This document shows positions 1 through 1,054 of a stretch of DNA of 1,054 nucleotides, piece after piece. Location: the NCBI GenBank assembly GCA_000004985.1, contig GG739591.1; one strand, written 5' to 3'. The notes below the pieces were generated by a model that worked only from the letters and a program-made list of their open reading frames with translations, did no database searches and was not told where the DNA came from. Position numbers and translations under genes: made by a program. This stretch comes from Naegleria gruberi (Eukaryota). The stretch's first letter is position 1. The number at the start of each line of letters is the position of its first letter.

Positions 1-973
1 AACTTGACTCGCTCTCAAAACAAAGACGATCGTTCACATAGATCTTGGTGCCATCTACAAATGATTTAATAATGACTACCGTGTAAGTTTGCGATAACAT
101 ATGAATTTCGTTAGGAATAGTTTGGATATATCTATCATTAAATTCAATAGTTTGACCTTCAAAAAATAGCGAAGTTCCTGACATGTAAATGGAGAATGAG
201 GGTCCACTCGTAATATTCATAATTGGATTGTATTCCTTAAACTCTTTAACATTAACCTTAAATGAAACATAAAAATCATTCGAGAACATGTAGAGAGGGG
301 AAATGTTGTCCTTGGTTCTTCCAATGAGACCGCTTCCATTACGGAACGATATTAAACCATCAACAAGCACCAAGTTAACAACAGATATTGTTAAATTACC
401 ACCTAGCTCGTTGAGATTGAAAGAACCGTCAGAGTTTTTCCACAAGTATTCTGAACTCATCTTTAACCTGAATGAATAATTTGGATATTCTGCCTTCAGT
501 GTTGATTGGAATGTTTGCAGTTCTTTAACAAATAATGTGTCAACTCCACTTTGAATATAGTCTGTTGATTTGCAATCGTTCCCGCAACTGTTTGAGTGAA
601 CATATCCAATAATTAATTCGCATGAATCTCCCCCATATACTACACCATCTTGAATGGTGCAATTACACATGTTCGGACCAATACAAGTACCATGTCCTGA
701 ACAAACATTAGGTTCATCGTTGTATATTATTCCAAAACAAGTGTGAGTTTCACATTGAGAATTAGTATGACCAGGAAAACATGAACAAATATCCGTGTCA
801 ACACATATACCATGTCCTGAACAAACATTAACGAGATCTGAACTTGGAATTTCGAAACAAGAGAAATCTTCTGCATCCACAAGACAACATCCAACAATCA
901 CCAACAGCACCAACAACAAATGCACATGCTTTGTATGCTGCGTGTGTATTTTCCTCGAGTATGAAAGACGCAT
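1..973 (-). CDS. Partial CDS (3' end lies beyond the left window edge) for a secreted modular protein: signal peptide, two EGF-like domains, then a LamG/ConA-like domain. The first 324 aa lie in the window.
   Basis: Hand translation of minus-strand frame with codon starts at 973, 970 ... 4. ATG at 973-971 and 324 sense codons to position 2 with no TAA/TAG/TGA. In AT-rich DNA, a stop-free run of this length in a non-coding frame is very unlikely. An in-frame TAA at 979-977 lies two codons upstream of the ATG, so the ORF cannot extend further 5'. The N-terminus has the charged-then-hydrophobic-then-VDA layout of a signal peptide. Two canonical 6-Cys EGF modules follow. The ORF track omits it, presumably because it has no stop in the window. 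Confidence 0.82.
   Translation of the reverse strand, partial: MRLSYSRKIHTQHTKHVHLLLVLLVIVGCCLVDAEDFSCFEIPSSDLVNVCSGHGICVDTDICSCFPGHTNSQCETHTCFGIIYNDEPNVCSGHGTCIGPNMCNCTIQDGVVYGGDSCELIIGYVHSNSCGNDCKSTDYIQSGVDTLFVKELQTFQSTLKAEYPNYSFRLKMSSEYLWKNSDGSFNLNELGGNLTISVVNLVLVDGLISFRNGSGLIGRTKDNISPLYMFSNDFYVSFKVNVKEFKEYNPIMNITSGPSFSIYMSGTSLFFEGQTIEFNDRYIQTIPNEIHMLSQTYTVVIIKSFVDGTKIYVNDRLCFESESS
2..493 (-). other. Laminin-G / concanavalin-A-like lectin-type beta-sandwich domain (aa ~161-324). Tentative, and truncated by the window edge.
   Basis: Low-cysteine region with an SFRLKM segment (compare LamG 'sFeFRT'). About 30 aa later comes NLVLVDGLISFRNGSG, resembling the LamG core '(D)FLaLELvDGrl.f.fdlGSG'. 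Later, TVVIIKSLVDGTKIYVNDRLC ends in a Cys, consistent with the C-terminal LamG disulfide. Six N-x-S/T sequons are present (NYS, NLT, NGS, NIS, NIT, plus NCT in EGF-2). This is an assignment by eye only. Confidence 0.35.
617..739 (-). other. EGF-like domain 2 (aa 79-119).
   Basis: Cys pattern C79-x11-C91-x5-C97-x5-C103-x1-C105-x12-C118-E, with a VVYGGDSCE ending typical of EGF (G-Y-x-G-x-x-C-E). It is about 40 aa downstream of EGF-1 with the same (P/V)NVCSGHG core. Confidence 0.65.
688..710. repeat. Copy 1 of a perfect 23-nt direct repeat (taccatgtcctgaacaaacatta on the + strand).
   Basis: Identical to 808..830. It encodes the NVCSGHG core of EGF-2 on the minus strand. Flanking bases diverge immediately on both sides. 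Confidence 0.9.
749..859 (-). other. EGF-like domain 1 (aa 39-75).
   Basis: Cys pattern C39-x11-C51-x5-C57-x5-C63-x1-C65-x8-C74-E. It has the hallmark CxC...G(aromatic/His)...C-E ending and the CSGHGxC motif seen in tenascin/teneurin-type EGF repeats. Confidence 0.65.
808..830. repeat. Copy 2 of a perfect 23-nt direct repeat (taccatgtcctgaacaaacatta on the + strand).
   Basis: Identical to 688..710. The spacing is exactly 120 nt, which is 40 codons, the EGF module period. It encodes the (x)NVCSGHG core of EGF-1 on the minus strand. Confidence 0.9.
872..973 (-). other. Predicted N-terminal signal peptide (aa 1-34, MRLSYSRKIHTQHTKHVHLLLVLLVIVGCCLVDA), with likely cleavage after VDA.
   Basis: Basic/His-rich n-region (R2, R7, K8, H10, H13, K15, H16, H18). 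A 14-residue hydrophobic core LLLVLLVIVGCCLV. V at -3 and A at -1 before E35-D36. Direct reading of the translation; not run through SignalP. Confidence 0.6.
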
Positions 974-1054
974 TTTTTATGACTGGTACAGTGCGTGTAG
1001 TTGGCTGAGTGTTGTCCAAATATGAAGATATCAAAAACCTTACTACAGTTATTA
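974..1054 (-). promoter_or_regulatory. 5' flank and putative 5'UTR/promoter region of the minus-strand gene.
   Basis: Minus-strand reading gives ...cactgtaccagtcataaaaaATGcgt, an A-rich start context with A at -3. No GGAGG-like Shine-Dalgarno is present. Stops occur in all three minus frames within this 81 nt. No convincing TATA box or -10/-35 pair identified. Confidence 0.25.

Follow-up and report, generated by a model that had tools for sequence, protein, structure and literature searches.

A short orphan contig of Naegleria gruberi holds the 5' end of a gene for a likely secreted or surface protein with EGF-like modules and a divergent laminin G-like domain

Contig GG739591.1 of the genome assembly (GCA_000004985.1) of Naegleria gruberi, a heterolobosean amoeboflagellate, is 1,054 nucleotides long, and the window analyzed here is that contig in its entirety. 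The original prediction, made from the letters alone, had noticed two tandem canonical EGF modules at 617-859, as well as a cleavable signal peptide. As the source it had proposed a eukaryote or a eukaryotic virus, or, if the host were a bacterium, a horizontally acquired eukaryote-like adhesin. The locus thus raises the questions of whose gene it is, what the protein carries beyond its EGF modules, and whether so short a contig represents a gene in its own right. The contig is an orphan scaffold that holds the 5' end of a minus-strand protein-coding gene, and the residues following the EGF pair are homologous to a repeated jelly-roll domain of a giant N. gruberi protein, NAEGRDRAFT_58267. With a probability of roughly 0.8, we regard the window as the 5' end of a N. 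gruberi gene for a secreted or surface protein of adhesion or recognition that combines EGF-like modules with a laminin G-like (LamG-like) domain.

The gene is represented by an open reading frame of 324 codons (2..973, minus strand), which starts with an ATG at 973-971 and meets no stop codon before the contig end cuts it off. The same frame has the longest stop-free run of the window, 325 codons; none of the other five frames exceeds 84, and none of 2,000 shuffles of the window exceeds 153. Over its full length the translation matches with 100% identity an NCBI record, 'predicted protein, partial [Naegleria gruberi]', whose sole contig has the length of the window, 1,054 nucleotides; the gene is already deposited, as an uncharacterized predicted protein. 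The G+C content of the window, 35.9% overall and 31.5% at third codon positions, agrees with the 35% of the published genome, a Sanger assembly of 1,977 scaffolds, and the composition therefore fits the host (PMC9928731). An Rfam scan of the window found no RNA family.

The relatives of the protein are revealed by its non-EGF part. When these 205 residues were used in an exhaustive HMMER search of 1.84 billion representative proteins, three matches were returned: the window's own protein, NAEGRDRAFT_58267 and a bacterial protein (P0004). NAEGRDRAFT_58267 (XP_002676246.1; UniProt D2VHZ3; P0003 in the search) is an uncharacterized protein of 5,396 residues, encoded on a 461,873-nucleotide scaffold of N. 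gruberi. It matches with E = 4e-144 in 8 stretches and is the only real relative of the non-EGF part among these representatives. The bacterial match, a repeat protein of 4,115 residues with E = 2e-6, was rejected as a homolog: its score adds up from about 15 stretches, each about 28 residues long and contributing about 2 bits. Identity to a N. gruberi record, together with a paralog on a large scaffold of the same genome, marks the sequence as a nuclear gene of this protist, and the eukaryotic source suggested in the original prediction is confirmed. Searches of 185,579 bacterial and archaeal genomes, of the 2.9 million viral contigs of IMG/VR, and of JGI metagenome contigs turned up no relatives, and within the sequences covered the family was found only in N. 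gruberi. Word-indexed homolog searches were less telling. Given an alignment of 7 copies, such a search returned only the window's own protein and missed the 5,396-residue paralog too; given an alignment of 12 copies, it returned zero matches, not even the window protein, which is a row of that alignment. Since the second search missed its own row, its negative outcome is uninformative, and word-indexed negatives are unreliable for the jelly-roll family.

These results bear on the two other sources that had been entertained. EGF-like and Laminin_G_3 domains occur in bacterial surface proteins, and the best solved structures found with the profile of the jelly-roll repeats are bacterial, namely an S-layer domain-containing protein (4qvs_A) and a Geobacillus arabinanase (5hon). 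The chance that a bacterium encodes the gene as a horizontally acquired, eukaryote-like adhesin is nevertheless vanishingly small. The sequence is that of a N. gruberi record, its sole real relative lies on the 462-kb scaffold of the same organism, the bacterial and archaeal genomes yielded nothing, the P0004 match is an artefact of summing over repeats, and the start codon has an A-rich context with no Shine-Dalgarno site. A check for best matches to bacterial proteins with the same domain order likewise came out negative, and the eukaryotic origin stands. EGF-like repeats are also encoded by some large DNA viruses of amoebae, and a short, unplaced contig is compatible with a gene of a giant or other eukaryotic virus, or with a virus-derived insertion. 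Such an origin is very improbable, given that the viral contigs hold no relative, that the nearest relative is encoded by N. gruberi itself, in a cellular gene with the same types of domain, and that the composition is that of the host. With the bacterial and viral readings effectively excluded, the alternative still to be weighed is about the status of the contig rather than its nature.

The part of the protein beyond the EGF pair comprises a linker (residues 120-165; 479..616, minus strand), delimited by alignments, and a domain (residues ~166-324; 2..478, minus strand) recognized by its homology to the jelly-roll copies of the paralog. The domain is incomplete: it lacks its final ~55 residues, or about four strands, and breaks off exactly at the contig end. 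Its identity to the two nearest paralog copies is 51% (E = 2.5e-54 and 2.7e-49), it has in common with them the helical linker and a YSFRLK motif, and the open reading frame retains the residues that are invariant in the jelly-roll family. The linker helix, predicted at residues 146-162 in both models with low to moderate confidence, corresponds to the helix that stands ahead of each jelly-roll copy in NAEGRDRAFT_58267. The 205 residues after the EGF pair, previously unannotated, can thus be read as a divergent and truncated LamG-like (concanavalin A-like) domain. The linker also has two extra cysteines, C130 and C134 (SNSCGNDCKS, window 575-586), just past the second EGF module, and a lone cysteine, C318, is found near the contig end. 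In the alignment, the stretch of the linker with C130 and C134 is not covered by any paralog repeat segment.

The fold of the family was addressed with the paralog copies, about 11 of which were found in NAEGRDRAFT_58267 with a hidden Markov model made from the repeat alignment. The Pfam family Laminin_G_3 (PF13385) matches five of the 12 copies at E <= 0.01 (best E 4.8e-8), and two copies, at 34 and 29.4 bits, exceed the curated cut-off of 27.6; the paralog copy nearest to the window scores 24-25 bits. A search of the PDB with the 12-copy profile found the S-layer domain-containing protein 4qvs_A with E = 3.8e-5. When the complete nearest paralog copy was modelled by AlphaFold with the 12-copy alignment, a helix followed by an all-beta sandwich was obtained, with a mean predicted local distance difference test score (pLDDT) of 76.8 and a predicted TM-score (pTM) of 0.75. 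Foldseek found 321 PDB matches to this model at E <= 1e-3, with clostridial neurotoxin binding domains in the lead, and the repeats thus have the jelly-roll beta-sandwich fold. Laminin_G_1 and Laminin_G_2 (PF00054, PF02210) match neither the window nor the paralog copies. Together, the Laminin_G_3 and 4qvs_A matches, the AlphaFold model and the Foldseek results place the family within the concanavalin A-like jelly-roll superfamily (LamG/pentraxin/CBM40), of which it is a divergent branch. The window connects to Laminin_G_3 through intermediates, from its own domain to the paralog copies and from these to the profile; on the sequence comparison, the window copy belongs to the jelly-roll family by clear homology to the paralog copies and not by a direct profile match. 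Indeed, the truncated copy of the window scores nothing with Laminin_G_3, and this jelly-roll subfamily is a divergent one.

The top Foldseek matches are to HCN, the N-terminal, jelly-roll half of the binding domain of clostridial neurotoxins (Pfam Toxin_R_bind_N), with E = 3.6e-8 and a query TM-score of ~0.5, and here too a helix leads into the jelly roll. In two paralog copies Toxin_R_bind_N is found below threshold (at most 20.9 bits against a cut-off of 23.8). The Naegleria family has no toxin domains, and the resemblance is at the level of the fold only.

The two modules for which the locus was singled out precede the linker. The first covers residues 39-75 (CFEIPSSDLVNVCSGHGICVDTDICSCFPGHTNSQCE; 749..859, minus strand), with cysteine spacing 11-5-5-1-8, and the second residues 79-119 (CFGIIYNDEPNVCSGHGTCIGPNMCNCTIQDGVVYGGDSCE; 617..739, minus strand), with spacing 11-5-5-1-12, the last loop being longer by a 4-residue insertion. 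Each has six cysteines with a CSGHGxC core between the second and the third, and both satisfy the spacing pattern that we tested for a module of ~40 residues, C-x(n)-C-x(3-8)-C-x(4-14)-C-x-C-x(8-14)-C. Among shuffles of the protein, even one such pattern was seen in 1 of 20,000. The Pfam family EGF_2 (PF07974) matches in two stretches, one in each module, at 25.0 bits against a curated cut-off of 22.1 (E = 2.4e-5; best residues 49-74), while the generic Pfam EGF model, at 14.9 bits, is under its cut-off of 21.5. Both modules are further supported by alignment with a metagenomic protein (P0002, described below), and the second also by alignment with a mastigoneme protein.

The modules, which lie on the minus strand, their coordinates and the CSGHGxC core were therefore as first described, but the word 'canonical' was too strong, because there is no exact match to a signature. 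The PROSITE patterns EGF_1 and EGF_2 match neither module. The PROSITE EGF patterns are diagnostic aids with known false negatives, and the mismatch thus weakens 'canonical' and not 'EGF-like'. The ending that had been ascribed to the modules, CxCxxG(Y/H)xGxxCE, is exact in neither: module 1 has H for the aromatic residue and N at the second G, while module 2 has the 4-residue insertion and V at the first G. The modules do not appear to be of the calcium-binding kind, as EGF_CA has no Pfam match at E <= 1, and C39 and C79 are preceded by DFS and THT, respectively. The six N-glycosylation sequons that had been counted as further evidence are all present (N-x-S/T at residues 104, 165, 193, 212, 223, and 253). 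They carry no evidential weight, since the shuffled protein has 3.9 +/- 1.7 of them and 18% of the shuffles reach at least 6, which means that composition alone accounts for their number. On the basis of their sequence features, the modules are best described as ordinary eukaryotic EGF-like modules that are not strictly canonical.

The similarity of the two modules extends to the DNA. A direct repeat of 46 nucleotides, 80% identical and spaced 120 nucleotides (40 codons) apart (665-710 and 785-830), codes for the NVCSGHGxC cores of both modules, and it is the only notable DNA repeat in the window. Repetition of the two EGF cores at the DNA level indicates that the modules are a true tandem duplication, and the 46-nucleotide repeat suggests that this duplication, or else a gene conversion, took place fairly recently. 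Within the repeat, about 23 bases in a row (counted by eye) are identical (TAATGTTTGTTCAGGACATGGTA, coding strand) and encode NVCSGHG.

Can the modules be assigned to a particular class of EGF repeats? The original prediction had called them tenascin/teneurin-type, and with tenascin and teneurin EGF repeats (EGF_Teneurin, PF23106; EGF_TEN, PF25024) they do have in common the CSGHGxC-type core and the head-to-tail arrangement of six-cysteine repeats. The score with EGF_Teneurin, 18.5 bits, is below the cut-off of 24.3, so that the label holds as a resemblance only. Among solved structures, the best sequence match of the modules is to a tubular mastigoneme protein of a stramenopile (PDB 9ufe, E = 1.8e-7). 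The window modules differ from these systems in being below threshold and in having a first Cys-Cys loop of 11 residues, and the similarity is limited to the EGF part. With the full-length protein as the query, the only other protein found, P0002, was likewise matched in its EGF region alone, with 45% identity to its EGF repeats, for which precomputed EGF_TEN calls exist. P0002 (L001 4566-5843, from JGI metagenome sample 3300062526) has about 8 EGF repeats of the same form, CFGI...VCSGxGxC, and these are followed by a membrane span and then by the beginning of a kinase domain. Its contig also codes for histone, ankyrin, cytochrome b5 and kinase genes, indicating that P0002 is eukaryotic as well. 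Since the called gene beside it is a kinase fragment, the two are probably one receptor-kinase gene that was split by a prokaryote-style gene caller.

Ahead of the EGF pair, the N-terminus fits the layout of a secreted protein. Residues 1-34 (872..973, minus strand) probably form a cleavable signal peptide, as judged by eye from hydrophobicity: basic residues lie within positions 2-18, the hydrophobic core LLLVLLVIVGCCLV (residues 19-32) has the highest Kyte-Doolittle hydrophobicity of the protein, and VDA|ED fits the -3/-1 rule for a probable cut at A34|E35. The hydrophobic N-terminus followed by VDA|ED is thus as had been claimed. The same is true of the start context, read directly from the sequence. 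The 5' flank of 81 nucleotides (974..1054, minus strand), which is all that the contig has besides the gene fragment, is A-rich at the start, with CATAAAAA immediately before the ATG. Two codons ahead of the ATG stands an in-frame TAA, and the flank has no GGAG-like (Shine-Dalgarno) site. As the source is a protist, prokaryote-style calling of open reading frames and searches for ribosome-binding sites are not applicable to the window, and its EGF modules are what one would expect in an extracellular protein of a eukaryote.

What might follow beyond the contig end is suggested by the paralog. Besides its jelly rolls, NAEGRDRAFT_58267 has about 39 six-cysteine EGF modules of the same CFGI...VCSG(H/N)GxC...CxC kind as those of the window, and its C-terminus, read directly, is a hydrophobic transmembrane stretch followed by a short tail. 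Judging from its sequence, it is a type I membrane protein in which jelly-roll domains alternate with EGF modules. Residues ~2330-2470 are nearly all N-x-T/S repeats (NFT, NLT, NIT, NYT), and these ~140 residues are probably a heavily N-glycosylated stalk. The paralog differs from the window protein in the number of its units, in an extra Cys-rich insert between EGF modules, in the N-x-T-rich stalk and C-terminal membrane anchor, and in a gene model without a signal peptide. The window protein, in turn, has a probable signal peptide and, up to the contig end, a single copy of each unit.

In line with this architecture, the product of the window gene would enter the secretory pathway by way of its N-terminal signal peptide, and the mature protein would be extracellular. 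The latter fits the twelve cysteines of the EGF modules, which need an oxidising compartment. From the N-terminus onwards, the mature protein would consist of a pair of EGF-like modules rich in disulfides, a short linker with a helix, and a LamG-like beta-sandwich, inside which the contig ends. The disulfide-bonded EGF modules would serve as rigid spacers, and a ligand, be it a glycan or a protein, would be bound by the jelly roll. Past the contig end the gene would go on, as its paralog does, to encode more EGF/jelly-roll units and possibly a membrane anchor. By analogy with NAEGRDRAFT_58267 and with jelly rolls of the LamG, pentraxin and CBM40 types, which have binding roles, the most likely role would be in adhesion or recognition, of substrate or prey, at the surface of the amoeba or in its secretions.

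Several points weigh against this interpretation. There is no direct jelly-roll profile match in the window, Pfam finding no family at E <= 1 in residues 120-324. The AlphaFold model of the whole window protein, from a 7-row alignment, is poor overall (mean pLDDT 46.6). Residues 230-324 do form beta-strands with pLDDT 64-87, but the EGF region, in which a two-hairpin fold with disulfides paired 1-3, 2-4 and 5-6 would be expected, stays unmodelled (pLDDT 22-30, with no structure formed), and the fold matches of the model are weak (best E 2.7e-3). With neither a direct Pfam match nor a good model of its own, the fold assignment of the window domain rests on homology to the paralog copies. As to function, the HCN jelly roll is not the established ligand-binding half of the clostridial toxin binding domain, and the fold alone is therefore no proof of lectin activity. 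The gene is cut at the contig end, so that a membrane anchor or further repeats beyond it are extrapolated from the paralog. We found no experimental characterization of any family member in the literature, and nothing specific on the identifiers of NAEGRDRAFT_58267 or on Naegleria in combination with EGF-like and laminin G. At the level of annotation, proteins labelled 'laminin' have already been recognized in Naegleria, for which a pangenome study gives 40 such predicted proteins (PMC9928731).

The remaining point concerns the contig itself, which, at 1 kb and orphaned, may stem from a leftover haplotype or from the relic of a gene. More generally, it could be a leftover of assembly and hold no independent functional gene, whether as a haplotype that was not collapsed, as the relic of a giant gene rich in repeats, or as the 5' end that NAEGRDRAFT_58267 lacks. 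Its 1,054 nucleotides without a stop codon are in keeping with this, as is the nature of the published assembly, with its Sanger reads and 1,977 scaffolds (PMC9928731). So is the state of the paralog. The gene model of NAEGRDRAFT_58267 opens in the middle of a jelly-roll domain (residues 1-125) and has no signal peptide, indicating that its 5' end is probably incomplete and needs an upstream exon or sequence like that of the window. The window offers exactly the type of N-terminus that this model lacks. However, when compared in common alignment columns, the window domain and the first, partial domain of the paralog are ~15% identical (by eye). The two are thus different copies, which excludes direct joining by overlap, and what may lie between the window and NAEGRDRAFT_58267 is an assembly gap. 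In addition, the open reading frame is intact across its 324 codons and keeps the invariant residues of the family, and 51% identity to the nearest paralog copies means that it is not an allele of them. An assembly leftover is on balance unlikely, and we favor the 5' end of a gene for a secreted or surface protein with EGF-like and LamG-like domains.

A larger view is possible, if still doubtful: N. gruberi may hold a family of very large surface receptors in which LamG-like jelly rolls alternate with EGF modules, and the window would then be the secretory N-terminus of a second such receptor, one that the main assembly lacks. The metazoan proteins that combine LG/LNS domains with EGF modules (neurexins, laminin alpha chains, agrin, perlecan, and Crumbs) resemble the Naegleria proteins in architecture and fold only. 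If the view is correct, the receptor family would be an independent, non-metazoan counterpart of the extracellular architecture of neurexin, laminin and agrin. The addition made here is a modest one, namely that the 205 residues past the EGF pair can now be read as LamG-like and are common to the window protein and a single giant paralog. Receptors of this kind could mediate the recognition of substrate or prey in a free-living amoeba, and if the family does prove to be the adhesion or prey-recognition machinery of this amoeba, it would be of interest to protist cell biology.

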